Made by a program: the position numbers and the translations under genes. Positions 5,046 through 61,928 of a stretch of DNA of 64,000 nucleotides are shown here, in pieces. Origin of the DNA: Acidobacteriota bacterium (GTDB lineage: Bacteria > Acidobacteriota > Thermoanaerobaculia > UBA5066 > Gp7-AA6); assembly GCA_046726795.1 (NCBI GenBank), contig JBKPBH010000027.1, forward strand, positions 4,215 through 68,214. The letters are read 5' to 3'. The first letter of the stretch is position 1, and every line of letters begins with the position of its first letter. The notes beneath the pieces are model-generated. The model was not told where the DNA came from and made no database searches. It was given only the letters and a program-made list of their open reading frames with translations.

Positions 5046-6089
5046 CTACCGCAGTTCCTCCATCATCTTCTCGAGGGCTTCGCGGCCGGGGCGGACGCGC
5101 TCCAGGGGAAGCGTCGCCAGGGGCTCCGCGGGCAGGTCGAGGAGAGCGAGGAAGTCCTTCTTTTGCGGCTCGACGTAGATCAGGCCCGTCAGGAACTCGC
5201 CCTTCTCCTGCGCCTCGTGGAGCAGATTGAAGGCGGCTCTCTTGTCGGTCGCGTCGTAGTCCTCGCGCAGCTTCTTCAAGCGGATGTGCGACCCGTCGTG
5301 CAACGTGACGTCCTGGGTCGTGCCCGGGTCGTAGTCCACGGTGATCTCGTCGAAGTAGGGGACGAAGCCGATTTCCTGGATCGGGATCTCGTGGTCCTTG
5401 GCCCACTTGTAGGACTTGGTCGAGTCCTCGTGGTTGTTGAAGGTGACGCACGGGGAGATGACGTCGAGGAGCGCGGTTCCGCGGTGCGAGATCGCGCCCT
5501 TCAACAGCGCCAGGAGCTGTTTCATGTCCCCCGAGAAGGAGCGCGCCACGTAGGCGCAGCCGAGCTCGATCGCCATCGCGCAGAGGTCGATCGCGGGCAG
5601 GTCGTTGACGACGCCGGTCTTCAGCTTCGATCCCAGGTCCGCGGTGGCCGAGAACTGCCCCTTCGTCAGGCCGTAGACCCCGTTGTTCTCGACGATGTAG
5701 ATCATCGGCACGTTCCGGCGCAGCAGGTGCATGAACTGCCCGGCCCCGATCGAGGCGGTGTCGCCGTCGCCCGAGACCCCGATCGACAGGAGCGTCGTGT
5801 TGGCCAGCATCGCCCCCGTCGCGACCGCCGGCATGCGGCCGTGAACGGCATTGAAGCCGTGGCCGCGGTCGGCGAAGTAGGCCGTCGTCTTCGAGGAGCA
5901 ACCGATGCCCGACATCTTGGCCGCTTTGTAGGGGGATACGCCCATTTCGTAGAAGGCCTGCGTGATCTGCCGGGTGATGACATCGTGCCCGCACCCGACG
6001 CAGAGCGTGGACTTCAACCCGCCGTACTCCTTGGTGGTCAGGCCGATGCGGTTGGTGGGAGGGGACTTGGGTTGGGCGACGGAGGACAT
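5046..6089 (-). CDS. korB: 2-oxoacid:ferredoxin oxidoreductase beta subunit (TPP-binding)
   Basis: Starts [11 protein letters not shown] (trimmed from the 806 aa ORF); TPP motif GDGD...[11 protein letters not shown]; its ATG overlaps the korA stop. Confidence 0.85.
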
Positions 6090-18296: not shown

Positions 18297-18322
18297 AGTA
18301 AATAAATATACAGTTATTTACT
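18297..18322. promoter_or_regulatory. AT-rich imperfect palindrome immediately upstream of the tetR ATG (candidate TetR operator/promoter)
   Basis: AGTAAATAA-ATATACAG-TTATTTACT lies 4-29 nt upstream of the tetR start and overlaps the last codons and TAA of polX. Confidence 0.5.
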
Positions 18323-20077
18323 AAAGGTCAAGGGGGAATCTGGAAGCGGGCCGCCGCGCCGTTTTTCGAGCCATTGCTGCAGCTCGTCCGCCGTCATGGC
18401 GTTCACGGTGGCGTCCGGGCCGACCCAGCCCTTTCGGGCAATCCCGAGGCCGAGCTCGACTAAGCCGAGCTCCGCGACGGAATGGGCGTCCGGGCCGATC
18501 GAGAAAAGGGCTCCCTTCTCCACGGCGCGGCGGACGTGCCTCCAGTCGAGGTCGAGCCTCTCCGGCGAACCGTTGATCTCCAGGGCGCAGCCCGACTCGG
18601 CCGCGGCGTCGAGGACGGCCTCGATGTCCGCGTCCACGCCCTCGCGCGTTAAGAGCAGGCGGCCCGTCGGGTGGCCGAGCACCGAGACACGCGGGTTGCG
18701 CACGGCTCGCAGCAGCCTCGCCGTCTGCTCCGCGCGGGGAAGGCCGAAGCGCGAGTGAATCGAGGCAACGACGAGGTCGAAGACGCCGAGGAAATCGTCC
18801 CCGAAGTCGATCGAGCCATCCGACAGGATGTCGGCTTCCGTCCCGTGAAAGATACGGAAGCCGGGGGATCTCCGCTGCAGGGCCCGGATCTCCTCGCGCT
18901 GCGCGAGAACGCGCCCCTCGTCCAGGCCTCCGGCGTACGCGGCGGTCTTGCTGTGGTCGGTGATCGCGACCCAGGAGTAGCCGGCGGCTCGGGCCCCTCC
19001 GACCATGTCCTCGAGCGTGTCGCGGCCGTCGGACTCGACCGTGTGGACGTGGACAATGCCCCGCAGGTCTTCGCGTGAGACGAGCCGGGGCAACTCCCCC
19101 CGCTCGGCCGCCTCGATCTCTCCTCGGCCTTCCCGCAGCTCCGGCTCGATGTAGGGAAGACCCAGGGCCGCGTAGATCGCCGCTTCGCTGGCGCCGGGGA
19201 GGGCCTCCCCGGGGGGCTGGGTCCGGAACAGACCGTACTCGTTCAACTTCAGGCCCATCCTCTTCGCACGCCCGCGCAGCTCCACGTTGTGCTCCTCGGA
19301 GCCCGTGAAATACAGCCACGCCGCGGGAAACTCCGCTTCCGACACGATCCGAAGATCGGCGGCGAGACCGTCGGTGAACCGCACGGAGGTTTTCGTCGGC
19401 CCGTCCGCCGTGATGTCGGCGACCCGCGGCAGGCGGCAGAAGGCGTCGGCCAGCGCTCCTGGATCCGGAGAGGCGGCGACGATGTCGATGTCGCGAACGA
19501 TCTCCTTTCGGCGTCGCAGGCTGCCCGCGATCTCGATCCGGGAAGCGAGCCCGGCGCTCTCCAGAGCGGCGAGCGCCTCCTCGGCGCGCCGGCGGGCCCG
19601 GCTGTAGCGGTGAAGGCCGGCCGAGGAGCGCAGGAGCGCGATTCCCTTCAGGATCCGTTCGGCGGTGCGGGAGCCGAACCCTTTGACGCCGGCGAGTCTC
19701 CCTTCTCGGCATGCGGCTTCCAGCGCTTCCAGCGAGTCAATGCCGAGTGTCTCGTGGAGTTGCCGCGCCTTCCGCGCGCCCAGCCCCGGGATCGTCAAAC
19801 ACTCTCGAAGGCCGGGAGGAAACCGCGCGCACAACTCCTCGTAGTAGGGGAGCGAGCCGGTCCGCACGAGGGTCTCGATGTTGCCGAAGAGCCCCGCCCC
19901 GATGCCCGGGACATCCAGGAGGTCGCGGCTGGCGACCGCGGCTTCCAGGTCTCCCGGAAAGGCCAGAATCGCCTGCGCCCCCATCTCGTAGGCCCGCACC
20001 CTGAACCGATTCTCGCCGGCCAGCTCCAGCATCGCCGCGATCTCAGCGAGCACGCGAGCGACCTCTCCGCGGTCCAT
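18314..20077 (-). CDS. polX: DNA polymerase X family protein with C-terminal PHP domain
   Basis: Trimmed to MDRGEVARVLAEIAAMLELAGENRFRVRAYEMGAQAIL (Pol beta-like N-term) plus a PHP histidinol-phosphatase-like C-term (VHVHTVESDG...HS); alternative ATG at 20101. Confidence 0.8.
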   Translation of the reverse strand: MDRGEVARVLAEIAAMLELAGENRFRVRAYEMGAQAILAFPGDLEAAVASRDLLDVPGIGAGLFGNIETLVRTGSLPYYEELCARFPPGLRECLTIPGLGARKARQLHETLGIDSLEALEAACREGRLAGVKGFGSRTAERILKGIALLRSSAGLHRYSRARRRAEEALAALESAGLASRIEIAGSLRRRKEIVRDIDIVAASPDPGALADAFCRLPRVADITADGPTKTSVRFTDGLAADLRIVSEAEFPAAWLYFTGSEEHNVELRGRAKRMGLKLNEYGLFRTQPPGEALPGASEAAIYAALGLPYIEPELREGRGEIEAAERGELPRLVSREDLRGIVHVHTVESDGRDTLEDMVGGARAAGYSWVAITDHSKTAAYAGGLDEGRVLAQREEIRALQRRSPGFRIFHGTEADILSDGSIDFGDDFLGVFDLVVASIHSRFGLPRAEQTARLLRAVRNPRVSVLGHPTGRLLLTREGVDADIEAVLDAAAESGCALEINGSPERLDLDWRHVRRAVEKGALFSIGPDAHSVAELGLVELGLGIARKGWVGPDATVNAMTADELQQWLEKRRGGPLPDSPLTFSK

Positions 20078-20110
20078 CGATCGATTGTAGCGGGGTAACA
20101 TGGCGCGCCG

Positions 20111-20935
20111 ATGCGCGTGGACCTGCACAGCCACTCTTCCGTCTCCGACGGCCTCGACTCGCCGGCCGAGCTGGTCCGGAAGATGAAGACGGCAGGAATC
20201 GAGACCTTCGCGCTGACCGATCACGACACGCTGCAAGGGCTGCCGGAGGCGCGCGCCGAAGCGGAGGCAGTCGGCATCGAGCTCGTCCCGGGCGCCGAGG
20301 TCTCGGCCGATTTCCAGGGGCAGGACGACGTCCACATCCTCGCCCTGTTCGTGGACGAGACGAACCCCCGGTTCAACGCGCGCCTGGCCGAGCGTCAGGA
20401 GAATCGGCGCCGGCGGGGGGAGCTCATGGCGGAAAAGCTGATGGCCGCGGGCTACCCGCTCGACCTCGACGCGATCCGCCGCGACGTCGGCGGCGGCGTC
20501 TGGGGGAGGCCGCACCTGGCGCGCGCTCTCGTCCGAGCCGGGCACGCCGCCTCCAACGAAGACGCCTTCGAGCGGTTTCTGGGCCGCGAGCGCCCCTGGT
20601 ACGTGCCTTCGACGAAATGGGCGGCGGCTGACGTGATCGAGGCGGTCCGCGAGGCCGGCGGAGTTTCCTCGCTCGCGCACGCCGTCTGGTACAAGGACGC
20701 GGAGGGTCTCATCCGCGCGCTGGTCGAGGCGGGACTCGACGCCATCGAAGTCTTCCATCCCGACCACGCGGCGGCGGAGGAGGCGCGGTTCGGGGGCCTC
20801 GCTCGGGAGCTCGGCCTGCTCGTGACGGCCGGCAGCGACTTCCACGGCGCTCCGGAGGGGCGCAAGCACCCGGGCGGCGTGGTCGGCACCGCGGAAATGC
20901 TGGGCCTTCTGCGAGGCCGGGCGCGTCCCCGATGA
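20111..20935 (+). CDS. PHP domain phosphoesterase (TrpH/YciV-like)
   Basis: MRVDLHSHSSVSDG...ALTDHDT PHP motifs; divergent from polX with an intergenic gap of <=33 nt. Confidence 0.7.
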   Translation: MRVDLHSHSSVSDGLDSPAELVRKMKTAGIETFALTDHDTLQGLPEARAEAEAVGIELVPGAEVSADFQGQDDVHILALFVDETNPRFNARLAERQENRRRRGELMAEKLMAAGYPLDLDAIRRDVGGGVWGRPHLARALVRAGHAASNEDAFERFLGRERPWYVPSTKWAAADVIEAVREAGGVSSLAHAVWYKDAEGLIRALVEAGLDAIEVFHPDHAAAEEARFGGLARELGLLVTAGSDFHGAPEGRKHPGGVVGTAEMLGLLRGRARPR

Positions 20936-21315
20936 TCCCGCCGGAAGCACCGGTACGTCCCTTCTGGGTGCTTCTCGTGCAACGGGGGGCGCCGGACGCC
21001 CTCTACGAGGCCGCCGCGATGACGGCCGCGGCGGTCTCGCTCGGGATCGACGTCACCGTGATCTGGTTCGACGCGGCGCTCGAAGCGCTGGCCTCGGGAC
21101 GCCTGGCGCAGGACGAAGGGGAGACCGGTCACGCCGGCCGCCTGCTTGCCGAGGCGCGAGAGGCAGGCGGCGGCGTGCGCTTCCTCGCCTGTTCCGCCTC
21201 CATGGTCAATCGAAGGATCGATCGCGAGGCCGTCGCCGGGTGTGTGGACGACGTCGTCGGCTGGCCGACGGCGATCGCGCTCATCCGCTCCGCCGAGCGC
21301 TCCTTCGTCTGGTAG
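20932..21315 (+). CDS. DsrE/DsrF/TusD-like small protein
   Basis: 127 aa; FWVLLVQRGAPD...RFLACSASMV has a DsrE-like fold signature with a conserved Cys; ATGA overlap with the PHP gene. Confidence 0.45.
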   Translation: MIPPEAPVRPFWVLLVQRGAPDALYEAAAMTAAAVSLGIDVTVIWFDAALEALASGRLAQDEGETGHAGRLLAEAREAGGGVRFLACSASMVNRRIDREAVAGCVDDVVGWPTAIALIRSAERSFVW

Positions 21316-34936: not shown

Positions 34937-36601
34937 ATGCTGCGGCGGCTGACGGTCAAGAACCTGGCGATCGTCGAGGATCTGGAGATGGAGCTCGAGG
35001 GAGGGCTGACGGTCATCACCGGGGAGACGGGCGCCGGCAAGTCCATCCTCGTGGACGCGCTGTCGCTGCTGGCCGGAGGGCGGGGATCCGTGGAGCTCGT
35101 GCGCGATGGAGCAGTGCGGCTGACGGTCGCCGGGGAGTTCGAGGCGGACGCGGCGGTGCGGCGGATTCTGTCGGAGGCCGGGCTGCCCGGGGGCGCCACT
35201 CTTCTTCTGCGCCGGGAGTTCTCTCCCGACGGCAAGGGACGGGTCTTCGTCGAGGACGAGCCGGCTTCGGTCCGGACGCTGGCGAAGATCGGCGAGAGGC
35301 TCGTGGCGATCCATGGCCAGAACTCGGAGCGCGAGCTCGCCGAGGCCGCGGCCCCACTCGAGCTGCTCGACGCCTTCGCGCGCGCCGACGCCGAGAGCCT
35401 CGCCACGAGCGAGGCGGCAGGAGCCTGGAAACAGGCGCGGGAAGCCAGGGAGGCGCTGGAAGACTCGCGCCGGGACCGGGGGGCCAGGCTCGAGATGCTC
35501 GACTATCAGATCCGCGAGATCCGGGACACGGCGCCGGACGAGAAGGAGGAAGAAGAGCTGCTCGGTCGGCGCGAGAGGCTCGTCCACGCCGACCGCATCC
35601 GTTCGGCCGCCGAGGCGGCGCTCGCCGCCCTGTCGGAGGCGGAAGGCTCGGCGGCGGACCGTCTGGGCGAGGCGGCGAAAGCGTTCGGGCTCCTCGCGGC
35701 GATCGATCCGCGCGAGAAGGCGCACCTCGAGGAGATCGAAGATGTCAAGCGCCGGGTCGCGGACCTCGCGGCGGCGGCTCGGGACGCGGCCGGGGAGAGC
35801 GAGGGCGATCCCGATCTCCTGACGCGTATCGAGTCGCGCCTGGAGAGGTTGTCGCGGTTGAAGCGCAAGTACGGCGGCACTCTGGCCGAGGTCCTCGCCG
35901 TTGCGGAAAGGCTTGAGCGGGAGCGCGAGGAGTTATCCAACATCGAAGACGCGCTCGGCCGCCGGCAGAAGGAGGAAGAAGCGTCTCGCTCCCGCTACCG
36001 CGAGGCGGCTGGCGTGCTGTCGGCGAAGCGCCGCGCGGCTGCCGGGAAATTCTCGGCCGCCGTCGAGACGGAGCTCCAGGCGCTCGCCATGGAGAAGGCC
36101 CGCTTTCGGGCGGTGCTCGAGCCGTTCGCGGAGGACGCGCCGAGGGCCTCGGGACTCGAGACAGCCTCGTTCCTGTTCGCGCCGAATCCCGGTGAGGCCT
36201 CCAAGCCCGTCGAGAGAATCGCGTCGGGAGGGGAGTTGTCGCGGCTCCAGCTCGCCATCCAGTCGGTGGCGGCAGGGCACGGCGGCGGTCGCACCCTCGT
36301 CTTCGACGAAGTGGACTCCGGCATCGGAGGCCGGACGGCCGAGGTCGTCGGGAAGAAATTGAAGGCGCTCGCAGCGCGGGGTCAGGTTCTCTGCGTCACG
36401 CACGTCCCGCAGATCGCGGCGGTGGCGGATCGTCACTTTCTTGCCGAGAAATCGCAGCTCAAAGGAAGGACGATCGCGACGGTGCGCGTTCTCGAAGGCA
36501 AAGAGCGCGTGGGAGAGATCGCCCGGATGCTGGCTGGCGAAAGGGTTCCGGAGACCGCCATCAAGCATGCGCGGACGCTGCTCGCGGCGGGGCAATCGTG
36601 A
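34937..36601 (+). CDS. recN: DNA repair protein RecN
   Basis: Trimmed to MLRRLTVKNLAIVEDLEMEL; Walker A GETGAGKS, long coiled coil, signature SGGELSRL, FDEVDSGIGG. Confidence 0.9.
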   Translation: MLRRLTVKNLAIVEDLEMELEGGLTVITGETGAGKSILVDALSLLAGGRGSVELVRDGAVRLTVAGEFEADAAVRRILSEAGLPGGATLLLRREFSPDGKGRVFVEDEPASVRTLAKIGERLVAIHGQNSERELAEAAAPLELLDAFARADAESLATSEAAGAWKQAREAREALEDSRRDRGARLEMLDYQIREIRDTAPDEKEEEELLGRRERLVHADRIRSAAEAALAALSEAEGSAADRLGEAAKAFGLLAAIDPREKAHLEEIEDVKRRVADLAAAARDAAGESEGDPDLLTRIESRLERLSRLKRKYGGTLAEVLAVAERLEREREELSNIEDALGRRQKEEEASRSRYREAAGVLSAKRRAAAGKFSAAVETELQALAMEKARFRAVLEPFAEDAPRASGLETASFLFAPNPGEASKPVERIASGGELSRLQLAIQSVAAGHGGGRTLVFDEVDSGIGGRTAEVVGKKLKALAARGQVLCVTHVPQIAAVADRHFLAEKSQLKGRTIATVRVLEGKERVGEIARMLAGERVPETAIKHARTLLAAGQS

Positions 36602-37737
36602 CCGAGGCAAGAGTTCCCCCCTCCCCCCGGTCGGCCGCTCGCTCCGCGAGGCGCGGCCTTCGGTCGCGGCCGACGCAGAAGTCAGCGGGGGGAGACCCCC
36701 CGAGCCCCCTCGCTCCCGTGGGGCGATATTCGAGGTCCGTCCTGTTTCCCGGGATCGGGGAGGAGGGCCAGAGGCGCATCGAAGAGTTCTCGATCGTGTT
36801 CGTCGGCGTCGGGGCGGTTGGAGCCGCGGCGGCGGAGGCGGCGGCGCGGGCGGGGATTGGTCGGATCACGCTCGTGGATCGGGACGTGGTCGAGGAGTCG
36901 AACCTCTCACGGCAGTTCCTTTTCGACGCCGAGGACGCGGCGCGCGTCGCGCCCAAGGCCGAGGCTGCGGCCGCTCGGCTGGGCGAGATCGCTCCGAACC
37001 TCCGGGCCCGCGGCGTCGTGGCGGACCTGGATCACCGGAACGCGCGTAAGATCCTCTCCGGCCACGATCTCGTCTTCGACGGCTCGGACAACTTCGAGAC
37101 GCGCCTGCTCGTTTCCGACGCCGCGCAGGCACTCCGCCTTCCCTCTCTTTACGCGGCCTGCGTCGGCGAGAAGGGCCTCGTGGCCGCGAGCGTTCCGGGG
37201 GAGACGCCCTGTCTTCGCTGCTACCTGGAGTCTCTCCCGCCGGCCGGCTCGGGGCCCACGTGCGATACGGCCGGCATCGTTCCGACGCTTCCTCTGCTCG
37301 TCGCCTCGGCCGGCGTCACGGAGGCCCTGCGCCTCGCGGTCGGCCGGCGCGTCTCGCGCGGCGTTCTTTCCCTCGAGATCTGGAAGGAAGGCCTCACGTC
37401 GCGGCGTCTCTTCGAGCGAGCGCGTCCGTCGGCGGCCTGTCTTGTGTGTGCCGGTAGTCGGTTCCCCGCGCTGGAAGGAGAAGGCGCCTCCGAAGTCGTC
37501 AAGCTCTGCGGGCGCAACTCCGTTCAGGTCGCCCCCGCCGGGCGCGAGAGACCGGACTTCGCGTCGCTCGAAGCCCGGCTCTCCCGCGTCGCCCGGGTCC
37601 GCAGGTCCGAGCAGCTTCTCTCGGCCGACCTCGAGGATGTGAGCCTCTCGGTCTTCTCCGACGGACGCTGCATCGTGCGAGGAACCAACGATCCCCGGCG
37701 AGCTCGGGTTCTTTACGAGCGCTACGTCGGGAGGTGA
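36598..37737 (+). CDS. ThiF/MoeB-family E1-like adenylyltransferase with C-terminal extension
   Basis: RYSRSVLFPGIG...VGVGAVG Rossmann, ESNLSRQ, and two CxxC pairs (CLRCY, CLVCAG), followed by ~100 aa beyond the E. coli MoeB end. GTG 36598 overlaps the recN stop; alternative start GTG 36718. Confidence 0.78.
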   Translation: MTEARVPPSPRSAARSARRGLRSRPTQKSAGGDPPSPLAPVGRYSRSVLFPGIGEEGQRRIEEFSIVFVGVGAVGAAAAEAAARAGIGRITLVDRDVVEESNLSRQFLFDAEDAARVAPKAEAAAARLGEIAPNLRARGVVADLDHRNARKILSGHDLVFDGSDNFETRLLVSDAAQALRLPSLYAACVGEKGLVAASVPGETPCLRCYLESLPPAGSGPTCDTAGIVPTLPLLVASAGVTEALRLAVGRRVSRGVLSLEIWKEGLTSRRLFERARPSAACLVCAGSRFPALEGEGASEVVKLCGRNSVQVAPAGRERPDFASLEARLSRVARVRRSEQLLSADLEDVSLSVFSDGRCIVRGTNDPRRARVLYERYVGR

Positions 37738-37741
37738 GGCG

Positions 37742-38347
37742 ATGCGCCGCGTGCGGATCGCGGACCTGATCGCTTCGCCGGAGGAGATCGGGGAGCTCCG
37801 GATGTTCCTGGCGCAGGGACGGCTCGTGGCCATACCGACCGAGACCTTCTACGGTCTGGCGGTGGATCCAACGAGCCGGGAGGGTGTGCGGCGGGTCTTC
37901 GAAGCGAAGGGGCGCGAGGAGGGAAAGCCGGTCCCCGTCGTGTTCGCGACGCGCAAGCAGCTCGAGGAGCTCGGAGCGGCCCCTCCGGACGACGTGCTGG
38001 CCAGCTATTTTGGCATCTGGCCGGCACCGCTGACCGTCGTTCTGCCGCTGAAGAAGCCGATCGCCGCCTCGGTCGATCGTCCGAACCTCGCCCTGCGCAT
38101 TCCGGCATGTCCCGAGCTGGTCCGTCTCCTCGAGGCGATCGGTCCGGTCACCGCGACGAGCGCGAATCGGAGCGGGGAGGCGCCCCTCACGGACCCGGAT
38201 GAAGTGGCCCGGATCTTCGAGGGAGCCGTGGACCTCCTCGTGGACGGCGGGCCGACTCCCGGCGGAAGACCCTCGACGCTTCTCGACGCGACCGTGGATC
38301 CGCCGGTGGTCCTGCGGCCGGGAGCGTTTTCCTGGCCTGCCCGATAA
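37742..38347 (+). CDS. tsaC: L-threonylcarbamoyladenylate synthase (YrdC/Sua5 family)
   Basis: YrdC-like fold (AIPTETFYGLAVDP...KGREEGKPVPV...TATSANRSGE). Confidence 0.88.
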   Translation: MRRVRIADLIASPEEIGELRMFLAQGRLVAIPTETFYGLAVDPTSREGVRRVFEAKGREEGKPVPVVFATRKQLEELGAAPPDDVLASYFGIWPAPLTVVLPLKKPIAASVDRPNLALRIPACPELVRLLEAIGPVTATSANRSGEAPLTDPDEVARIFEGAVDLLVDGGPTPGGRPSTLLDATVDPPVVLRPGAFSWPAR

Positions 38348-38385
38348 GAGACGGCCGGACGCCGCATGCTAGATTCTCCGCGCCA

Positions 38386-38916
38386 ATGGGATTGATCAAG
38401 GAATTCGGAGGGAAGACTCCGAGCATCGGCGAGCGGGTCTATCTGGCCGAGACGGCCGCGGTCATCGGGGACGTCGTCCTCGAAGACGACGTTTCGGTCT
38501 GGTACAACTCCGTGCTGCGCGGGGACTGCCATTCGATTCGGGTTGGCGCGCGCTCGAACATCCAGGACAACTGCGTGATCCACGTCACTCAGGACAAGTA
38601 CCCGACCGTGCTCGGCGAAGAAGTCACGCTGGGCCATGGAGCGATCGTGCACGGCGCAGTCGTGCGGTCGGGCGCGCTCATCGGGATCCGCGCCACGGTC
38701 TTGGACGGCGCCGATGTCGGGGAGTCCGCCTTCGTCGGAGCCGGCGCCCTCGTGACGCCCCGCACCGTCGTGCCCCCCCGCACACTGTGGCTGGGCTTTC
38801 CTGCCCGGCAGATCCGCGTCCTGTCGGAGGCCGAGGTCGAGGACCTGAAGCACTTCCATCGGAACTACCTCGACTACAAGAAGGAGTACTTCCGCGTCGA
38901 CGGGAAGTGGGCGTAG
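38386..38916 (+). CDS. Gamma-class carbonic anhydrase family protein (LbH, YrdA/PaaY-like)
   Basis: Hexapeptide repeats with conserved His (NIQDNCVIHV, LGHGAIVHGA). Confidence 0.85.
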   Translation: MGLIKEFGGKTPSIGERVYLAETAAVIGDVVLEDDVSVWYNSVLRGDCHSIRVGARSNIQDNCVIHVTQDKYPTVLGEEVTLGHGAIVHGAVVRSGALIGIRATVLDGADVGESAFVGAGALVTPRTVVPPRTLWLGFPARQIRVLSEAEVEDLKHFHRNYLDYKKEYFRVDGKWA

Positions 38917-41979: not shown

Positions 41980-41983
<4 letters not shown>

Positions 41984-43065
41984 GAGAGCCCCGTCGGATC
42001 GCGGCCGGCGGCTCCGAGGGGAGCTGGGAAAGCATCCTCTGGATCGGGCCGGGCCTTCTGGAGGCACCAGCTCCGTATCTGGCCTCTCCCTCGGGCCGTT
42101 ACGTCCTGGTGTCTTCGGCCGGCTCGCAGGAGGCGGCTCGCAGGATCCGCGCGGGGCTCGCGGGCCGGATCCTGGCGGACGTCGAGATCGACGACCGCGA
42201 AGAGGCGAAGACGCTGACCACGGTGGCGCGTATCGCCGACGCCGCGCTGGCGGCCGGCCTGCGCCGCGACGACGCGCTGGTCGCGGTCGGAGGCGGAGTC
42301 GTCTGCGACGCCGCCGGGTTCTCGGCCGCGATCCTGCTGCGCGGGATCCCCTGGAATGCCGTGCCCACGACGACGGGCGCGATGGCGGACGCCGCGATCG
42401 GGGGAAAGACCGGCGTGGACCACGCGGCCGGCAAGAATCTGCTGGGGGCGTTCCATCCGCCTCGGGCGGTCGTGATCGATCCCGCGGCGGCCGCCACGCT
42501 GCCCGGCCGGGACTTCCGAGCCGGTCTGGTCGAGGCCATGAAGGCGGCCTGGATCGTCGACGCGGACCTGGCCGCCCGGGCGGAACGGGACATGGGGAAG
42601 ATCCTGGCGCGCGAGGAGGAAGCGCTCCTCGACCTTCTCTCTGGCGCGGCCGCGATCAAGGCCGCGATCGTCTCGGAAGATCTGAGAGAAGGGGACCGGC
42701 GCCGCCTCTTGAACTTCGGTCACACTCTCGGCCACGCGTTCGAGGCCGCCGGCGGATACCGCGACTTGAAGCACGGAGAGGCCGTGGCCTGGGGGATCGC
42801 GGCGGCGCTCGAGATCTCGCGGAACCGGGCGGGGCTGCCCGCGGAGGACGCCGAGCGGGTCCGGGAGGCCCTCCGGAGTCTCGGCCCCTTCCCAAAACCG
42901 TGTCGGGATCCGGCTGTCCTCGCCCCCTTTCTGTCCCGGGACAAGAAGTCCACGGCGCGGGGGACGGCGGGTGTCTTGCTGGAAGCGATCGGACGAGGCC
43001 GGATCGACGAGGCGATCCCGCTCGAGGAATGGCTCGACGCGGCGGCCAGGCTCCGGCTCGACTGA
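41980..43065 (+). CDS. aroB: 3-dehydroquinate synthase
   Basis: GGGVVCDAAGF, NFGHTLGHAFE motifs; GTG 41980 overlaps the aspS stop (GTGA); the upstream 120 codons of the ORF overlap aspS and were trimmed. Confidence 0.88.
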
Positions 43066-48627: not shown

Positions 48628-49619
48628 TCCTCTTCGAAGGATCTCGGGCTCCGACCGTCCGGGCCGGAGAGTTCGAGCTGGCCTCACGCCGGATTGCGGC
48701 CCGGGCCTTTCCGTACGCGGGGGAGGTCGGGGGCGCCCGGTTCCGTTTCGATCCGATCGAGCGGCGTTTCCACTCGCGCTCGGCGGAGGGGACCGTCCTG
48801 GCGGGGCCTCACGAGCCCCCGGCATGGAGAACCGCGCTCTTGCGCGGACCGGCGGGACCAGTCCTGGTCGGCCCTGGCTCCGTCGGCGAAGAAGTCCGCG
48901 GCGTCTACCAGGCCGCGGCGGAAGGCGCCCGTCAGTCCGGGCGCGCCGTCTATCTTCTCGATCCGGAGCCCTCGGGTCTCCCGGAGGGGCCTGGGGCCGC
49001 CTTTACGGCTCTCTTCGTGTGGTTCCCGGGATTGGAGGCGCCCGACCAGACGCTCGCGGAGGCGCGTGCGCGCGGAATCGCGGCGGGCTGGCTCCTGCCG
49101 CTCGTCGCCGGCTGGACCGCGACCCCGGAGATCGAGGACGACGCGGCGCGGCGCGCCGCTCTCTCGGGGGCTTCGTTTCTGGCCGGCGTCCCGCTCGCCG
49201 ACGACGGCCTGGCTCGGCGCGTCGCCCTGGAGGCGGCTGCCCTGACGACGCCCGAGTCGGTCGAGACGCTCTTCGAGCGGGTGCATCACGGGGCCGAACC
49301 GGATGAAATGCGGAGAGCTCAGGACCGCCTTCGCGAAGCCTGTGCGCGCGAGGGACTCGCCTGCGTGCCGCCGCGGCCCGTGGGCACGCGGGAACCGGCC
49401 GCCAACGCGGCCGCCGCGGCGCGCCTCGAGGAGAAGGCGGAGGCGACGTCCGGCGACGAGCATCGAGCGGCCCTCTTCCATGCGGCGGCGCGCTGGTTGG
49501 ACGAATCGGGGCGCGACCTCGGGCCGATCGCCCGGGAAGGGAACCTGCCCAAGGTCTTTCCCTTCGGAGCGGACCTCGCCCGCGAGGTCGAGGAAGCGCT
49601 GACGGTCGGTAGACCGTGA
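48624..49619 (+). CDS. Hypothetical Ala-rich protein, function unknown
   Basis: 331 aa ORF; ATGA overlap with the ribE stop and GTGA overlap with the hemW start suggest translational coupling; no motif recognised. Confidence 0.4.
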   Translation: MILFEGSRAPTVRAGEFELASRRIAARAFPYAGEVGGARFRFDPIERRFHSRSAEGTVLAGPHEPPAWRTALLRGPAGPVLVGPGSVGEEVRGVYQAAAEGARQSGRAVYLLDPEPSGLPEGPGAAFTALFVWFPGLEAPDQTLAEARARGIAAGWLLPLVAGWTATPEIEDDAARRAALSGASFLAGVPLADDGLARRVALEAAALTTPESVETLFERVHHGAEPDEMRRAQDRLREACAREGLACVPPRPVGTREPAANAAAAARLEEKAEATSGDEHRAALFHAAARWLDESGRDLGPIAREGNLPKVFPFGADLAREVEEALTVGRP

Positions 49620-57219: not shown

Positions 57220-57424
57220 TCTTCGGTTGCTCCTTCTCTCGTGTTGTCAACCGGGAGGCCCGTCCCGGAGGGCGGAATTCTGTTGAATTCTCTCCGACAA
57301 AGCAACAGTGTTTTTCGAGACATCCGGGTGCTTCTGGCCGGTCGCCGGAGGCGGCCCGATCGTCGCAGGAAACGCGGGGAATATTCCGGCGCGGCAGGAG
57401 TTTGCGTTGACTTCAGGAGGACTC

Positions 57425-59131
57425 TTGAAAAGACCCCGACTCCTTGCCGCGGCGCTCCTGTTCGCGGCGCCGCTCCTGGCCCAGAAACCCCCCGAGCCGG
57501 CCCAGAAGCCCCCCTCGTCCGCGGACAAGCCGCTGCCGCCCGTCAGCGAGAGGGTCGAGGTCGCGGTCACCAACGTCGAGGTCGTCGTCACCGACTCGAA
57601 GGGGAAACGAGTCCCTGGCCTGACCCGCGATGACTTCGAGGTCTGGCAGGACGGCACGCCGCAGAAGATCACGAACTTCTACGCGGTGTCGGGAGGCAAG
57701 GTCCTCCTCGACGATGGCAAAGTCGTCGCCCTGGATTCCCCGGCGGCCTCCGCGGAGATCCCGGTCGACCTGAAGGCCCGCTACATCCTCTTCATCGACA
57801 ACCTGAACATCCAGCCCCAGAACCGCAACCGGATGTTCAAGCGTCTCGAGGAGTTCGTGCAGCAGACGATCGGCCCGCGCGCCGAGGCGATGGTCGTGAC
57901 CTACAACCGATCCCTGAAGACCCGGCGCAAGTTCACCTCCGAGCCGAGCGAGGTCGTGGCCGCGCTCGACGAGATCGAGAAGGAGACGGGCGGCGGCACC
58001 ACGCTCGTCTCCGAGCGGCGCGACGCCCTCCACCAGATCGACGAGTCGACCAACGCCGGCTCCGCTTTGACCATCGCGCGCAGCTACAGCCGCTCGCTGC
58101 GCAACGATCTCCTGTTCCTCGTGGACGCGTTGAAGAACACGATGAACAGCCTTGCGGGAATCGAGGGGCGCAAGATCCTGGTCTACGTCTCCGAGGGGAT
58201 TCCCTCGACGGCCGGGCTCGAGCTCTTCGATCAGATCCAGCGGAAGTTCCGGGACCAAGCCGGCACTTCGACGCTCGAGCAGTTCGAGTTCGACATGAAC
58301 GCGAAATACGCCGGCATCATCCAGTCGGCCAACGCGCAGGGGGTCACGATCTGGGCGCTCGATGCGTCGGGCCTGACGACCGAACAGCTCACCTCCGCGG
58401 AGAACCGGTCCTTCGAGACGCGCCCCAACGACTTCGTCCTGCGCCAGAACACGCAGGCGCCGCTGCAGCTCATGGCGGACCAGACCGGCGGCATGGCCGC
58501 CATCAACACCAATGACTGGAAGAAGAGCTTGGACGAGCTGTCCTCGGACTTCTCCAACTTCTACTCGATCGGCTACCGCACGACCCGCTCGGCGGTGGAC
58601 CGCCCGCACTCCGTCGAGGTGCGGGTCAAGCGCAAGGGCCTGACCGTCCGCGCGCGCAAGGGGTTCCTCGAGAAGACGGTCGAGACGAAGACAGCCGAGG
58701 GAGTCCTGGCGAGCCTCTTCTACCCGCGGGACGACAATCCTCTCGCCATCAGCGTCTCCGTCGGCGCGCAGCGCCCCTACGACCAGGAGAACTTCGCCCT
58801 ACCCGTCCGTATCGCCGTCCCGATCGGCAAGCTCGGCCTCGTGCCGACCGGCGACCACTACGAGGCGACCTTCTTCGTCTACGTGGTGGCCCGGGACAAC
58901 TCGGAAAAGCAGTCGGACCTGGCGGTCCAGCGTCAGGTTGTGACGGTCCCCGCCAAGGAGCTCGACAAGGCGCAGCGCAAGGACTGGTACTACGACTTCA
59001 CGATGACCGTGGCGCCCGGCGCCCAGCGAGTGGCTTTCGCCGTCCGGGACGGAATCTCGAACCAGGTCTCTTATTACCAGAAGAACCTGTTCATCTCGCT
59101 CCTCCCGAAGGAGACCAAAGCCAAGAGTTGA
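57425..59131 (+). CDS. Secreted von Willebrand factor A (VWA) domain protein
   Basis: SD aggagg + TTG 57425 gives signal peptide MKRPRLLAAALLFAAPLLAQ; VWA fold with MIDAS-like residues (ILFIDNLN...S..G.T). Confidence 0.7.
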   Translation: MKRPRLLAAALLFAAPLLAQKPPEPAQKPPSSADKPLPPVSERVEVAVTNVEVVVTDSKGKRVPGLTRDDFEVWQDGTPQKITNFYAVSGGKVLLDDGKVVALDSPAASAEIPVDLKARYILFIDNLNIQPQNRNRMFKRLEEFVQQTIGPRAEAMVVTYNRSLKTRRKFTSEPSEVVAALDEIEKETGGGTTLVSERRDALHQIDESTNAGSALTIARSYSRSLRNDLLFLVDALKNTMNSLAGIEGRKILVYVSEGIPSTAGLELFDQIQRKFRDQAGTSTLEQFEFDMNAKYAGIIQSANAQGVTIWALDASGLTTEQLTSAENRSFETRPNDFVLRQNTQAPLQLMADQTGGMAAINTNDWKKSLDELSSDFSNFYSIGYRTTRSAVDRPHSVEVRVKRKGLTVRARKGFLEKTVETKTAEGVLASLFYPRDDNPLAISVSVGAQRPYDQENFALPVRIAVPIGKLGLVPTGDHYEATFFVYVVARDNSEKQSDLAVQRQVVTVPAKELDKAQRKDWYYDFTMTVAPGAQRVAFAVRDGISNQVSYYQKNLFISLLPKETKAKS

Positions 59132-59215: not shown

Positions 59216-59911
59216 ATGGTGGACAGGCTTCCGAGCCTTCTTCTCTTCGCGAAGGCTCCCGCTCGAGGCCGCGTCAAGACGAGGCTCGTGCCGCCCCTGT
59301 CCGAGGCGCAAGCCCTCGCCCTGTATCTGGCCTTTCTCGAGGACGCGGCGACGACCTACTCGTCCCCGGGGAGGTGGCAGGCGGTTCTCGACGCCGATCC
59401 CGATCCGGACGCTCCGGCCCTGGCGGCGCTTTTTCAGGGATGCTGGCGGCGCCGCCGGCAGGCGGCCGGGGATCTCGGCGAGCGTCTGGCGGCATCCTTC
59501 GAACGCGAGTTTTCCGAAGGCGCTCCGGCCGCCGTCGCCGTGGGATCGGACCACCCGGCCTTGGAGCTCCGCCTGCTCGAGCAAGCCTTCGGCCACCTCG
59601 CCGGCGGCGACGACGCCGTCGTGATCCCGGCGGACGACGGCGGTTACTGCGCGATCGGGCTCGCGTCGCGTGCTCCCGTCCGGAAGGTCTTTTCCGGAAT
59701 CCCATGGTCGTCGTCGTCCGTCCTGAGGACGACCCGGCAGCGCTTCGAGGCCCTGGCCCTACGGGCGTCCATCCTCGAGCCGGCCTACGACGTCGACCGT
59801 CCCGAGGATCTCGACCGGCTCCGCAGGGACCTCGCGCGTCGCGACCCGGCGCGGCCAGACTATCCGCGGGCGACGGCTCGCGCGCTCGGGGTCTTTCTGG
59901 AGGCTCCGTGA
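59216..59911 (+). CDS. DUF2064 family (MobA-like nucleotidyltransferase fold) protein
   Basis: Trimmed to MVDRLPSLLLFAKAPARGRVKTRL; the upstream part of the ORF is encoded by the hairpin repeat. Confidence 0.5.
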   Translation: MVDRLPSLLLFAKAPARGRVKTRLVPPLSEAQALALYLAFLEDAATTYSSPGRWQAVLDADPDPDAPALAALFQGCWRRRRQAAGDLGERLAASFEREFSEGAPAAVAVGSDHPALELRLLEQAFGHLAGGDDAVVIPADDGGYCAIGLASRAPVRKVFSGIPWSSSSVLRTTRQRFEALALRASILEPAYDVDRPEDLDRLRRDLARRDPARPDYPRATARALGVFLEAP

Positions 59912-61452
59912 TCCCCGTCTTGGACGCGCGGCGCATGCGCGCCGCGGACGCCGCGGCGATCCGGGGCGGCATCGCCTCCGGACGGCTCATGGAAAACGCC
60001 GCCCGGGGGATTGCGGCCGAGCTCGTTCGCTCGTACCCTCAAGCCAGGACGATCGCTGTTGCCTGCGGCCCCGGAAACAACGGCGGCGATGGCCTCGCGG
60101 CCGCCCGGCTTCTCGCCGGGCGCGGCCTCTCGGTGTCCGTCTTCACGCTCGCCGACCCCGCCGCCTATCGGGGAGACGCCGCCGAGAACGCGCAGCGGGC
60201 CCGCGAGGCCGGCCTCGATCTCGTGCCCCTTTCGCGTCGAGTGGCGAGGGCCGCTTTTGGGCGAGGGCTGCGCGGGGCCGACGTCGTCGTAGACGCTCTC
60301 TTCGGAACCGGGCTGACACGACCCCTCTCCGGCGCGGCAGCCCGCGCGGTCTCCGCGATCAACGCGGCCGGTCGGCCCGTGGTCGCGGCGGATCTGCCCT
60401 CGGGACTCTCGGCCGACACGGGCAAGCTGCTCGGTCTCGCGGTCAGAGCCTCGATCACCGTGGCGTTTGCGGCCGTCAAACACGCTCACGTCTTCTGGCC
60501 GGCGCGAGGCTTCTGCGGGCGAGTCGTCGTCGAAGACATCGGGATTCCGCGGCGGGTTCTCCTGGCGCGAGCGCAGCCTCTCGCGGTGGCCGAGCCCCGC
60601 GACCTTTGCGCGTGGCTGCCTCCCCGTCCCGGCGATTCGCACAAGGCCGACTTTGGCCACCTGGCGGTCCTGGCGGGGTCGCGCGGCAAGGCGGGGGCGG
60701 CGGTGCTGACAGCCCGAGGGGCCCTCCGGGCGGGCGCGGGTCTCGTCACGGTTTTCTGTCCGGCTTCGATCGAGCCGATCGTCGTCTCCGCGCTCCCCGA
60801 GGCCATGACGCGCGCGATGCCGGAAGAGAACGGCGCTCTGGCTTCCTCGGCTGGGGAAGAGCTCCTGGAAGCGCTTGGCGGATTCGACGCGGTCGTGGCC
60901 GGTCCCGGGCTCGGCACGGCTCCGGGCACAGTCGAGGTTCTGGAAAGACTGCTGGAGGCCCCGTATTCCGTCGTGTGCGACGCGGACGCGTTGAACGCCT
61001 TCGCCGGCCGTCCCCGCGTCTTCTCCCGCCGCAGGGAAACGACCATCCTGACGCCTCACCCCGGGGAGGCGGGCCGGCTGCTCCGGATCGGCAGCTCACG
61101 CGTTCAGGAGGACCGCCTGACGGCGGGTAAGCGCCTGGCGCGGGCGAGCGGCGCGATCGTGGTCCTCAAAGGAGCCGCGACCCTGATCGTGACGCCGGCC
61201 GGCCGCGTCACGGTCAATCCGACCGGCACGCCGCTGATGGCGACCGCCGGCTCGGGGGACGTACTGGCCGGCGCCGCCGGAGCCCTCCTCGCAGCGGGAG
61301 TCGGCGCGGAGCGAGCCGCCGTCGCCGCCGCGTACCTGCACGGCCTGGCCGGAGAGCTGCTCGCCCGGACCCTCGGCGATGCCGGGCTCCTGTCCGGACA
61401 GCTCGCGGACGCGCTGCCGCTGGCGCGGCGGGCGCTGCTCGGAGCGTCATGA
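59908..61452 (+). CDS. nnr: Bifunctional NAD(P)H-hydrate epimerase/dehydratase
   Basis: YjeF-N (ACGPGNNGGDG) and YjeF-C (GHLAVLAGSRGKAGAAVL...TAGSGDVLAG); GTG 59908 overlaps the previous stop (GTGA). Confidence 0.85.
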   Translation: MIPVLDARRMRAADAAAIRGGIASGRLMENAARGIAAELVRSYPQARTIAVACGPGNNGGDGLAAARLLAGRGLSVSVFTLADPAAYRGDAAENAQRAREAGLDLVPLSRRVARAAFGRGLRGADVVVDALFGTGLTRPLSGAAARAVSAINAAGRPVVAADLPSGLSADTGKLLGLAVRASITVAFAAVKHAHVFWPARGFCGRVVVEDIGIPRRVLLARAQPLAVAEPRDLCAWLPPRPGDSHKADFGHLAVLAGSRGKAGAAVLTARGALRAGAGLVTVFCPASIEPIVVSALPEAMTRAMPEENGALASSAGEELLEALGGFDAVVAGPGLGTAPGTVEVLERLLEAPYSVVCDADALNAFAGRPRVFSRRRETTILTPHPGEAGRLLRIGSSRVQEDRLTAGKRLARASGAIVVLKGAATLIVTPAGRVTVNPTGTPLMATAGSGDVLAGAAGALLAAGVGAERAAVAAAYLHGLAGELLARTLGDAGLLSGQLADALPLARRALLGAS

Positions 61453-61928
61453 GGCGTGCGGCGGGGGACGCCGCGCCATGGAATCGGGAAGAGCGCACCG
61501 AGAGCGAGCAGGAGACCGAGCGGTTCGGCGTGCGTCTGGCGGCCGCGGTCGGGCCGGGCGACGTTGTCTATCTGGTCGGCCGGCTCGGCGCGGGCAAGAC
61601 CGCTCTGGCGCGGGGGCTGGCGCGGGGTCTCGGGGCGTCCGCGGGCCAGGTCGCCTCGCCGAGCTTTGCGATCCTCCACGAGTACGCGGGGGCGTTGGGC
61701 GAAATCGTGCTGCGCCACCTGGATCTCTATCGCCTGAAAGACGAGGAAAAAGAGCTGGCGATCCTGGGGCTGCCCGGCGCGGTGTCGGACGCTCCGGTGG
61801 CCGTCGAATGGCCCGGTCAGGCGATCGGGAAGCTTCTCCCGCCGACGATCGAGGTCCGCATCGAGGTGCTCGGGGACGCCGCTCGGAAGATCGGGCTCGT
61901 CAGAAGGCGAGGATCAGCCCGCCGTTGA
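61449..61928 (+). CDS. tsaE: tRNA threonylcarbamoyladenosine biosynthesis protein TsaE
   Basis: P-loop GRLGAGKT; ATGA overlap with nnr. Confidence 0.85.
   Translation: MRRAAGDAAPWNREERTESEQETERFGVRLAAAVGPGDVVYLVGRLGAGKTALARGLARGLGASAGQVASPSFAILHEYAGALGEIVLRHLDLYRLKDEEKELAILGLPGAVSDAPVAVEWPGQAIGKLLPPTIEVRIEVLGDAARKIGLVRRRGSARR

Follow-up and report, generated by a model that had tools for sequence, protein, structure and literature searches.

The gene at 36718..37737 (+ strand) of the window, the whole 64-kb stretch of DNA analysed, very probably encodes a MoeB/ThiF-type E1-like adenylyltransferase that starts at GTG 36718, joins an E1 core to a C-terminal TBP-like domain, and works with carrier genes located outside the window. 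Because TBP-like tails have already been described in Bacillus-type MoeB and ThiF, the gene is an ordinary member of the MoeB/ThiF family with a tail of a known kind. It is best annotated as a MoeB/ThiF-family adenylyltransferase (E1 core + TBP-like domain) of 339 aa, from 36718, rather than as a novel kind of E1 system or an enzyme linked to t6A. The wider interest lies in the family as a whole, in which textbook cofactor-biosynthesis enzymes carry a very widespread domain (849 representative clusters) that has an absolutely conserved Cys. Residues are numbered below from the start of the longest open reading frame (379-residue numbering) unless the 339-residue numbering is indicated.

The identity of the core as MoeB/ThiF-like, proposed in the first-pass annotation, is borne out. 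The Rossmann-like E1/ThiF adenylation domain (36727..37422, +; residues 44-275) matches Pfam PF00899 at E 4e-60, with 203 bits against a cutoff of 28. E. coli ThiF (1zud) is matched by sequence at E 3.6e-28, and Foldseek superimposes the core on ThiF and MoeB with E values of about 1e-20 and an rmsd of 1.9 Å across 248 columns. Two motifs, RYSRS (residues 43-47; R-x-x-R) and DGSDNFETR (D-x-x-D-N, the ATP-Mg site), are at least 90% conserved in the family and align with E. coli ThiF; their catalytic roles are known from MoeB and ThiF. The glycines of the GVGAVG nucleotide-binding loop (GxGxxG; residues 70-75, 36805..36822, +) are likewise at least 90% conserved in alignment A2. A presumed tetra-cysteine zinc site is formed by two CxxC pairs that align with those of E. 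coli ThiF: CLRC (residues 205-208; 37210..37221, +), both Cys of which are invariant in 56 family members, and CLVC (residues 281-284; 37438..37449, +), both Cys of which are at least 90% conserved, aligned to the C-terminal CxxC at which the E. coli protein ends. Between them, the PTCDTAG loop (37255..37275, +) carries a Cys (C222, or C182 in 339-residue numbering) that is invariant in A2, that aligns with the "rnCrtag" loop of E. coli ThiF, and that we take to be the equivalent of ThiF Cys184, the ThiS acyl-disulfide residue. E. coli ThiF (PDB 1ZUD/1ZFN) and MoeB (PDB 1JW9) share the adenylation core, zinc CxxC pairs, and crossover-loop Cys with the window protein, at an rmsd of ~2 Å across ~245 residues and 27-30% identity, but stop right past the second CxxC (~250 aa) and lack the TBP-like domain.

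The C-terminal extension of about 100 residues, also proposed from the first reading, is a real domain: 95 residues follow the second CxxC, and the protein ends in ...YERYVGR, confirming that there is no terminal GG. The suggestion that this tail is vaguely beta-grasp-like, by contrast, gives way to a TBP-like fold in the predicted structures. In the full AlphaFold model (pLDDT 93), the tail comprises E268-271, H281-288, E293-296, E300-305, E308-313, E318-321, and H326-337 (339-residue numbering), and a domain-only model (pLDDT 85) keeps the same order of elements; both predict a beta-alpha-beta4-alpha topology. The domain thus delimited (37492..37734, +) consists of a beta hairpin followed by alpha-beta4-alpha. 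Its best consistent Foldseek matches are TBP repeats (TM 0.55-0.58, rmsd 2.6-3.0 Å, probability 0.95-1.0), and hhalign pairs it with yeast TBP in the expected register (E 0.0012, probability 19%). Sequence similarity to TBP is faint: the Pfam TBP family (PF00352) weakly matches 8 of 40 family tails, with a best E of 8e-4, but not the tail of the window protein itself, and a sequence search with this tail by itself gives no relative in the PDB. Two motifs stand out among 327 unique C-terminal domains. LCGRNSVQ (37504..37527, +), which contains Cys304 (Cys264 in 339-residue numbering), has its Cys and Gly conserved at 100%, Arg at 95%, and Gln at 96%; FSDGRCIVRGTND (37654..37692, +), the counterpart of the TBP motif F-x-S-G-K-x-V-x-T-G in the hhalign register, has F at 99%, D at 97%, R at 100%, G at 99%, and T at 95%.

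Two other identities for the tail were considered and rejected. A beta-grasp fold is ruled out by the beta-alpha-beta4-alpha topology, the TBP-repeat matches, and a VGR terminus at the end of a helix; none of the 50 best PDB matches to the tail is a chain of ubiquitin-like, ThiS, or MoaD type, and the Pfam scan gave no ThiS match. A rhodanese or MoeZ domain, which the first-pass annotation had named as the finding that would overturn its view, was looked for and is absent: no rhodanese Pfam family matches at E values up to 0.1, the MoeZ model covers the core only, and the fold is TBP-like.

Nor is the tail unusual: a large, already catalogued subfamily, NCBIfam NF009123 (PRK12475), is defined by it. 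The window protein aligns with this profile over residues 43-378, corresponding to profile positions 4-338 of 338 with the tail included. At 294 bits it falls short of the curated cutoff (510), and it likewise scores under the cutoffs of the ThiF and MoeB equivalog models, which marks it as a divergent member; elsewhere in the family, the NF009123 scores are 655 for Bacillus mycoides (locus L035), 482 for Neobacillus kokaensis (L060), and 360-410 in other phyla. An exhaustive search of representatives placed the C-terminal domain in 849 representative clusters, always at the C-terminus, with the E1 + TBP-like architecture spanning Acidobacteriota, Planctomycetota, Chloroflexota, Bacillota, and Streptomyces; a tail-only search of a word-indexed protein database had returned gene fragments only. 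The Bacillus-type MoeB/ThiF proteins, exemplified by L035 and L060, share the ~337-340 aa length, the two-domain architecture, and motifs from end to end, including LCGR and the tail pattern F-DGR-x4-GT-D...AR..Y.RY.G-x, but are just 37-41% identical to the window protein.

A MoeB homologue with a C-terminal TBP domain was described in 2010 and again in 2013 (PMC2948915; PMC3597702). There, the "ThiF-MoeZ-MoeB group" of the TBP-domain superfamily (Brindefalk et al.) is reported from bacteria and archaea, with the extra domain lacking experimental data (PMC3597702; PMC2948915). This group has exactly the architecture found here, a MoeB homologue followed by a TBP-fold domain; it has few members, however (the 2013 clustering held three), compared with the 849 representative clusters of the present analysis, and the invariant tail Cys found here is not discussed in the accessible text (PMC3597702; PMC2948915). 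The literature searched yielded no experimental work on the TBP-like tail domain.

Relatives anchored in cofactor operons show the company that such enzymes keep. For this survey, loci were scanned with the full-length alignment, since a 12-sequence tail alignment was too diverse. In Bacillus mycoides (L035), the E1 gene lies within a moaA-E1-moeA-mobB-moaE-moaD Moco operon, and in Neobacillus kokaensis (L060) within a tenI-thiO-thiS-thiG-E1 thiazole operon. It adjoins a ThiS/Urm1-like carrier and a PLP enzyme in L030, and Thi4 and ThiS in L048; in all, carrier genes adjoin E1 in L030, L035, L048, L055, L060, and L077. Class-V aminotransferases are encoded immediately downstream of E1 in three phyla (L030, L048, and L056), and E1s of this architecture also occur beside CysO-like carriers and cysteine-desulfurase-like genes. 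The placement of the window protein among MoeB, ThiF, MoeZ, and TcdA rests on HMM scores; it is ~36-41% identical to all anchored members, identities too uniform for a ThiF or a MoeB role to be assigned.

Judged from its E. coli homologues ThiF and MoeB, the window enzyme would form a zinc-stabilised dimer that binds ATP-Mg and adenylates a small sulfur-carrier protein of the ThiS/MoaD family at its C-terminal glycine. Sulfur supplied by a cysteine desulfurase would then turn the resulting acyl-adenylate into a thiocarboxylate, and the carrier would pass this sulfur on to molybdopterin, thiazole, or both. The genes for the carrier would be situated beyond the window. Weighing against this assignment, the 64-kb window holds no ThiS, MoaD, MoaE, or ThiG homologue, no moa or thi gene, and no plausible small ORF ending in GG; the lack of a thiS, moaD, or moaE neighbour had been noted on first reading.

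How the TBP-like domain might contribute to this chemistry can be suggested only tentatively. It is possible that the domain docks a cysteine desulfurase or holds a persulfide, by analogy with the rhodanese domain of MoeZ/MOCS3/Uba4 or of E. coli ThiI. The MoeZ/MOCS3/Uba4 proteins similarly continue from an E1 core into an extra C-terminal domain bearing one conserved Cys, and a built-in sulfur relay may be the logic common to both designs; they differ in that their extra domain is a rhodanese rather than a TBP-like fold, and the MoeZ model matches the window protein over residues 41-249 only (125 bits against a cutoff of 647). Stated more specifically, the TBP-fold domain with its LCGR Cys could conceivably be an unrecognised sulfur-relay domain that transfers a persulfide from a cysteine desulfurase to the carrier acyl-adenylate. 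Three lines of evidence point to such a role: the 100% invariance of the tail Cys, the adjacency of family members to desulfurase-like genes, and a report that most Gram-positives lack IscS, that the ThiI they carry has no rhodanese domain, and that ThiI of B. subtilis is dispensable for thiamine (PMC5372745). If true, the relay would explain how ThiS and MoaD are sulfurated without a rhodanese protein in Bacillus-type and many other bacteria, and it would be a trait of the whole family, not special to the locus in the window.

It is also quite conceivable, at somewhat less than even chances, that the domain performs no sulfur chemistry and serves as a structural or docking platform, stabilising the dimer or binding MoaE, ThiG, or a desulfurase, with the Cys being structural or an additional metal ligand. 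In adaptor and COPG appendages, platform domains of the TBP fold serve as hubs for protein interactions (PMC3597702), the pTM of 0.91 suggests that the domain is packed in a fixed position on the core, and much of the F-x-D-G-R...G-T motif mirrors a structural turn motif of TBP. Weighing on the other side, the first hairpin keeps Cys-Gly absolutely invariant, along with conserved Arg and Gln, across 327 sequences of ~35-100% identity, which exceeds what packing usually needs; moreover, E. coli ThiF and MoeB function without such a domain.

The gene itself is most likely shorter than first described. The longest ORF runs from a GTG at 36598 to 37737 (+; 379 aa), and the first-pass annotation accordingly had it translationally coupled to recN through a GTGA overlap. 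Only two starts are possible for this ORF, 36598 and 36718, and the second is most likely the true one, giving 339 aa. NCBI's own call, protein P0001, is 100% identical over 339 aa and begins at GTG 36718; the shorter protein spans positions 4-338 of 338 of the NF009123 profile and is modelled by AlphaFold with a pLDDT of 93.2 and a pTM of 0.91; and ~340 aa is the length of most of the 120 closest homologues. The first 40 codons of the long ORF (36598..36717, +) have no coding signature, since their GC content by codon position (0.72/0.80/0.80) is unlike that of the remaining gene (0.74/0.53/0.83) and of recN (0.76/0.49/0.86). Most likely, this segment is not translated and is a GC-rich spacer between recN and E1 that contains hairpins (GGGGGGAGACCCCCC; GTCGGCCGC...GCGGCCGAC). 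The corresponding gap measures 50-70 nt in relatives, and the 117-nt spacer has no repeat copy elsewhere in the 64-kb window or in the loci of relatives, no Rfam match, and neither a terminator nor a promoter in a simple scan. In the window as a whole there are neither tRNAs nor Rfam families, TPP and Moco riboswitches included.

That the 379-residue frame is genuine and coupled to recN is unlikely, even if several observations speak for it. GTG 36598 does share nucleotides with the stop codon (TGA) of recN and is preceded by a G-rich stretch at a distance of 4-10 nt, and 36718 has no Shine-Dalgarno-like sequence just upstream. Similar MTEAK...PSP N-termini appear in the calls of a few homologues, and recN and E1 overlap by 4 nt in L002 and L003, yet the start there is only ~8-12 residues ahead of the RYSRQ motif. 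Against these, the extension is non-coding in its codon-position GC, is missing from NCBI's call and from most homologues, and has a low-complexity Pro/Arg/Ser composition; at such G+C content, frames stay open by chance alone. It is also frame-inconsistent with homologue P0015, whose own "N-terminal extension" corresponds to two different reading frames of the spacer. The overlap of GTG 36598 with the recN stop exists, but neither the start codon nor the coupling is confirmed, and the GTGA junction probably arises only because the longest ORF was chosen.

The neighbouring genes form a conserved housekeeping block. Upstream lies recN (34937..36601, +; TIGR00634, 464 bits against a cutoff of 408, with the profile match beginning at residue 97 of its long ORF). 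Downstream, tsaC, encoding L-threonylcarbamoyladenylate synthase (37742..38347, +; TIGR00057, 139 bits against a cutoff of 123; Pfam Sua5_yciO_yrdC), is followed by a gene for a gamma-carbonic-anhydrase-like hexapeptide protein (38386..38916, +; NF050158, 185 bits, below the cutoff of 250) and then by hisS and aspS. The block is conserved in L001, L002, L006, and L007. The adjacency to tsaC seen at first reading is real: tsaC starts 4 nt past the E1 stop, equally tightly in L001 and L003, and the two genes are probably co-transcribed. Nevertheless, the recN/tsaC adjacency is a lineage-specific gene order and not a sign of common function: the two flank E1 in just 6 of the 85 loci, which are all from Thermoanaerobaculia-like organisms or the nearest relatives of these, and a link to either gene across the family is rejected. 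The window locus differs in this respect from the Bacillus-type MoeB/ThiF loci, having recN and tsaC as neighbours and no carrier or pathway gene nearby.

The earlier hint at tsaC and TcdA is not supported. It is very unlikely that the enzyme is tied to tsaC and acts on tRNA, for example as a t6A dehydratase resembling TcdA or as an E1 for thiolation, its TBP-like domain binding nucleic acid. The close pairing with tsaC persists in relatives down to 46% identity, hisS and aspS belong to the same block, and TBP-fold domains do bind nucleic acid in TBP and RNase HIII (PMC3597702). However, tsaC occurs within 7 kb in those same 6 loci only; recN and the gamma-carbonic-anhydrase-like gene, hisS, and aspS are conserved to an equal extent, as plain synteny predicts; and TsaE is encoded 24 kb away, among unrelated genes. 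TcdA/CsdL has a ThiF-type Rossmann fold, and its t6A pathway includes tsaC, but those relatives of the window protein that are anchored, in Moco and thiazole operons, are MoeB and ThiF enzymes, and TcdA orthology is rejected, with a score of 45.9 bits against a cutoff of 304 for NF011696, over residues 57-166 of the Rossmann part only.

Hardly credible is a tail that itself stands in for the ubiquitin-like carrier as a TBP-fold analogue within the enzyme, with its C-terminus (a conserved Gly plus one residue) being processed and adenylated or thiocarboxylated: Makarova and Koonin proposed small GG-ending TBP-fold proteins, often fused to E1, as Ubl analogues (PMC2948915), and the conserved Gly is the penultimate residue in 203 of 231 full-length members and the last in 27, but this Gly is predicted to close a well-ordered helix (H326-337 in 339-residue numbering, pLDDT ~88-91) with no flexible tail, the operons of Bacillota members contain separate ThiS or MoaD genes, and the window protein ends in VGR rather than GG.

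The preferred assignment, a MoeB/ThiF-type enzyme serving a separate carrier, is set in a genome with uses for both candidate products. Among the proteins encoded in the window are an FdhF/YdeP oxidoreductase that requires Moco (TIGR01701, 590 bits, cutoff 582) and a 2-oxoacid:ferredoxin oxidoreductase that requires TPP, indicating that the organism uses both cofactors.

The studied E1 gene encodes a ThiF/MoeB-like adenylyltransferase, with a longest ORF (36598..37737, + strand, GTG start) of 379 aa. The first-pass annotation described it accurately: the motifs RYSRS, GVGAVG, CLRC and CLVC are all present in the protein, and the 95 residues beyond the second CxxC terminate in ...YERYVGR rather than GG. 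In a Pfam search of the ORF, ThiF matched residues 44-275 (E 4e-60), and the last ~100 residues gave no match. NF009123 (PRK12475, the 338-position NCBIfam model 'MoeB/ThiF family adenylyltransferase') aligns at positions 4-338 with residues 43-378; thus, the tail is already part of an existing curated model, on which E1 scores 294, under the cutoff of 510. Used by itself as the query of an exhaustive phmmer run, the tail recovered 849 representative clusters (E up to 0.001), always at the extreme C-terminus of complete proteins of ~335-350 aa, with one 834-aa fusion. The architecture has also been published. Brindefalk et al. (2013) list a 'ThiF-MoeZ-MoeB group' of MoeB homologues from bacteria and archaea that carry a TBP domain at the C-terminus, citing no experimental information (PMC3597702), and Makarova and Koonin cover small TBP-fold proteins with GG ends, frequently fused to E1s (PMC2948915). 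The tail, initially viewed as unusual, is therefore not so; E1 belongs to a known, widespread enzyme architecture, as an unexceptional if somewhat divergent member.

In an AlphaFold2 model built from a 56-sequence alignment (pLDDT 93.2, pTM 0.91), the core superposes at about 2 A on E. coli ThiF and MoeB, and the tail forms a beta hairpin followed by alpha-beta4-alpha. A domain-only tail model showed the same element order (pLDDT 85). PDB sequence and structure searches found no entry covering the tail. With the domain-only model, TBP repeats were the consistent best Foldseek matches (TM 0.54-0.58, rmsd 2.6-3.4 A, probability 0.89-1.0, E 0.04-0.5), and the TBP-fold N-domain of OGG1 was also among the matches. 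Alignment of the family tails to yeast TBP with hhalign gave E 0.0012, setting F-x-D-G-R-x-I-V-x-G-T of the tail opposite F-x-S-G-K-x-V-V-x-G-A of TBP, and Pfam TBP weakly matched 8 of 40 family tails. Together, these comparisons predict a TBP-like tail. The vaguely beta-grasp-like fold suggested at first pass is ruled out by the models and by the top 50 Foldseek matches, which include no ubiquitin-like, ThiS or MoaD chain. A rhodanese is likewise excluded by the TBP-like fold.

Only two candidate E1 starts exist, GTG 36598, which overlaps the recN TGA, and GTG 36718. GC content per codon position is 0.72/0.80/0.80 in the 40 intervening codons, compared with 0.74/0.53/0.83 in the remaining gene, 0.76/0.49/0.86 in recN and 0.75/0.52/0.83 in tsaC. 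The identical NCBI protein (P0001, 339 aa) begins at 36718, and lengths of 338-344 aa predominate among the 120 nearest homologues. In one homologue with a long 'N-terminus' (P0015), the first 12 residues match one spacer frame and the rest (REARPSVAA...) another, which points to nucleotide rather than protein conservation. The recN-E1 gap is 50-70 nt in three related loci (L001, L006 and L007); two others (L002 and L003) have a genuine 4-nt overlap, with E1 starting only ~8-12 residues ahead of RYSRQ. Codon-position GC, P0001, homologue lengths, the P0015 frames and the relatives' gaps make 36718 very probably the start. The longer start preferred at first pass was a misjudgment, and the associated 'GTGA coupling' to recN is regarded as a by-product of choosing the longest ORF. 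The spacer ahead of the probable start (36602-36717, 117 nt, roughly 78% G+C) contains two perfect short hairpins, GGGGGG-AGA-CCCCCC and GTCGGCCGC...GCGGCCGAC, and its nucleotide sequence seems to be conserved in a few close relatives; it has no repeat copy in the window, no Rfam match and no terminator-like T run.

When one genome for each GTDB species was scanned, 80 loci matched query residues 1-339; they come from Acidobacteriota (several classes), Planctomycetota, Chloroflexota, Bacillota (Bacillus mycoides, B. arachidis, Neobacillus, Calidifontibacillus and Bhargavaea), Streptomyces cavernae and others. The Neobacillus locus (L060) reads tenI-thiO-thiS-thiG-E1, and Bacillus and Bhargavaea loci (L035, L055 and L077) combine E1 with moaA, moaC, moeA, mobB, moaE and moaD, ordered moaA-E1-moaC-moeA-mobB-moaE-moaD in L035 and L055. 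A Phycisphaerae locus (L030) encodes, in this order, a PLP enzyme, a ThiS/Urm1-like carrier and E1; a Dehalococcoidia locus (L048) has Thi4, DUF6775 and ThiS upstream; and a Streptomyces locus (L056) has moaA and moeA nearby. In these last three, a cysteine-desulfurase-like class-V aminotransferase lies directly downstream of E1 (L030:9239-10405, L048:5006-6154 and L056:7998-9119), overlapping the E1 stop in L056. On NF009123, the B. mycoides enzyme scores 655 bits (above cutoff), the Neobacillus ThiF 482 and those of other phyla 360-410. Judged from operon contexts and these scores, the family appears to comprise sulfur-carrier-activating E1s of Moco, thiazole and CysO-type pathways. The DUF6775/DUF7001 'probable metallopeptidase' of L048 (L048:1095-1895), between Thi4 and the ThiS-like gene, may be a carrier-processing peptidase.

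The identity of E1 to every anchored member is a uniform 36-41%. The absence of a thiS, moaD or moaE neighbour was confirmed: the 64-kb window contains no GG-ending ThiS/MoaD-like ORF and no homologue of ThiS, ThiG, ThiO, TenI, Thi4, MoaA, MoaC, MoaD, MoaE, MoeA or MobB, nor of the cysteine desulfurases or PLP enzymes known from related loci. It does encode an FdhF/YdeP molybdopterin-dependent oxidoreductase (2807-5023, - strand; TIGR01701, 590 bits against a cutoff of 582) and a two-subunit, TPP-dependent 2-oxoacid:ferredoxin oxidoreductase (5046-7939, - strand), indicating that both cofactors are in use and that the organism requires a MoeB/ThiF-type E1. The two enzymes' genes adjoin, and a nuoB/C/D/I-like cluster, read from the sequence, occupies 11-2681 on the strand opposite to FdhF/YdeP.

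Across 327 unique tails, the Cys-Gly of LCGR and the Arg of DGR are invariant (100%), followed by the tail Phe (99%), the penultimate Gly (97%), the Gln of VQ (96%) and the Arg after LCG (95%). Among 231 full-length members, 203 have exactly one residue after the conserved C-terminal Gly and 27 have none. The fixed C-terminus (37729-37734) recalls the published ubiquitin-analogue idea for GG-ending TBP-fold proteins; in the AlphaFold2 model, however, this Gly closes a helix. In E. coli, ThiS sulfuration requires the ThiI rhodanese domain. Most Gram-positives have no IscS, and the ThiI they possess lacks the rhodanese domain; in B. subtilis, ThiI is dispensable for thiamine (PMC5372745). Given these facts, the invariant residues and the desulfurase-like genes abutting E1 in three phyla, a role of the tail as persulfide relay or desulfurase docking site is a reasonable hypothesis of fairly low probability, and it would concern the whole family rather than this locus.

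The adjacency of recN (upstream; TIGR00634, above cutoff) and tsaC (4 nt past the E1 stop; TIGR00057, above cutoff) noted at first pass holds, but not the functional meaning attached to it. TcdA orthology is rejected (score 46 bits, cutoff 304), and RecN and TsaC homologues adjoin E1 in six loci only: four from Thermoanaerobaculia/Acidobacteriota at 62-80% identity (L001, L002, L006 and L007), plus L003 and L004, which represent one 46% relative. Neither homologue occurs within 7 kb in the remaining 79 loci. Genes for a gamma-carbonic-anhydrase-like protein, hisS and aspS follow tsaC, and close relatives keep the entire block recN-E1-tsaC-gammaCA-hisS-aspS, as expected for inherited gene order. 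Co-transcription of tsaC and E1 is probable; no support was found for a t6A link of E1. The t6A genes are dispersed in the window, with TsaE (the t6A ATPase subunit; 61449-61928, + strand) 24 kb from tsaC, overlapping the end of an Nnr/YjeF NAD(P)HX repair gene (59908-61452) that is preceded by a DUF2064 gene (59216-59911). The pairing of tsaC with the gamma-carbonic-anhydrase-like gene (37742-38916, + strand), also seen in L001, L002, L006 and L007, could be functional, since bicarbonate/CO2 is a TsaC substrate.

Elsewhere, Pfam (E up to 1e-5) matched nothing in two ORFs with good coding signatures (48840-49619, + strand, 259 aa; 57308-59131, + strand, 607 aa). The ORF at 18314-20950 (- strand), called at 877 aa, encodes a DNA polymerase of PolX type with PHP, HHH and pol beta thumb domains; because these Pfam domains begin near residue 293, its true start may lie downstream, or its N-terminal part may be unrelated. 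In several Acidobacteriota, a bifunctional aroD/aroE gene (type I dehydroquinase and shikimate dehydrogenase) lies directly upstream of E1 (L010, L012, L019, L023, L040 and L046) or nearby (L013, L015 and L016), and aroB (3-dehydroquinate synthase) lies 4 kb downstream of E1 in the window (41980-43065). An 834-aa homologue, P0185, fuses aroD/aroE to E1 and its TBP domain; its cluster has 8 members, and their contigs reach 7 Mb. The shikimate pathway may be recurrently linked to this E1 architecture, or the pattern may reflect gene order and a lost stop codon.
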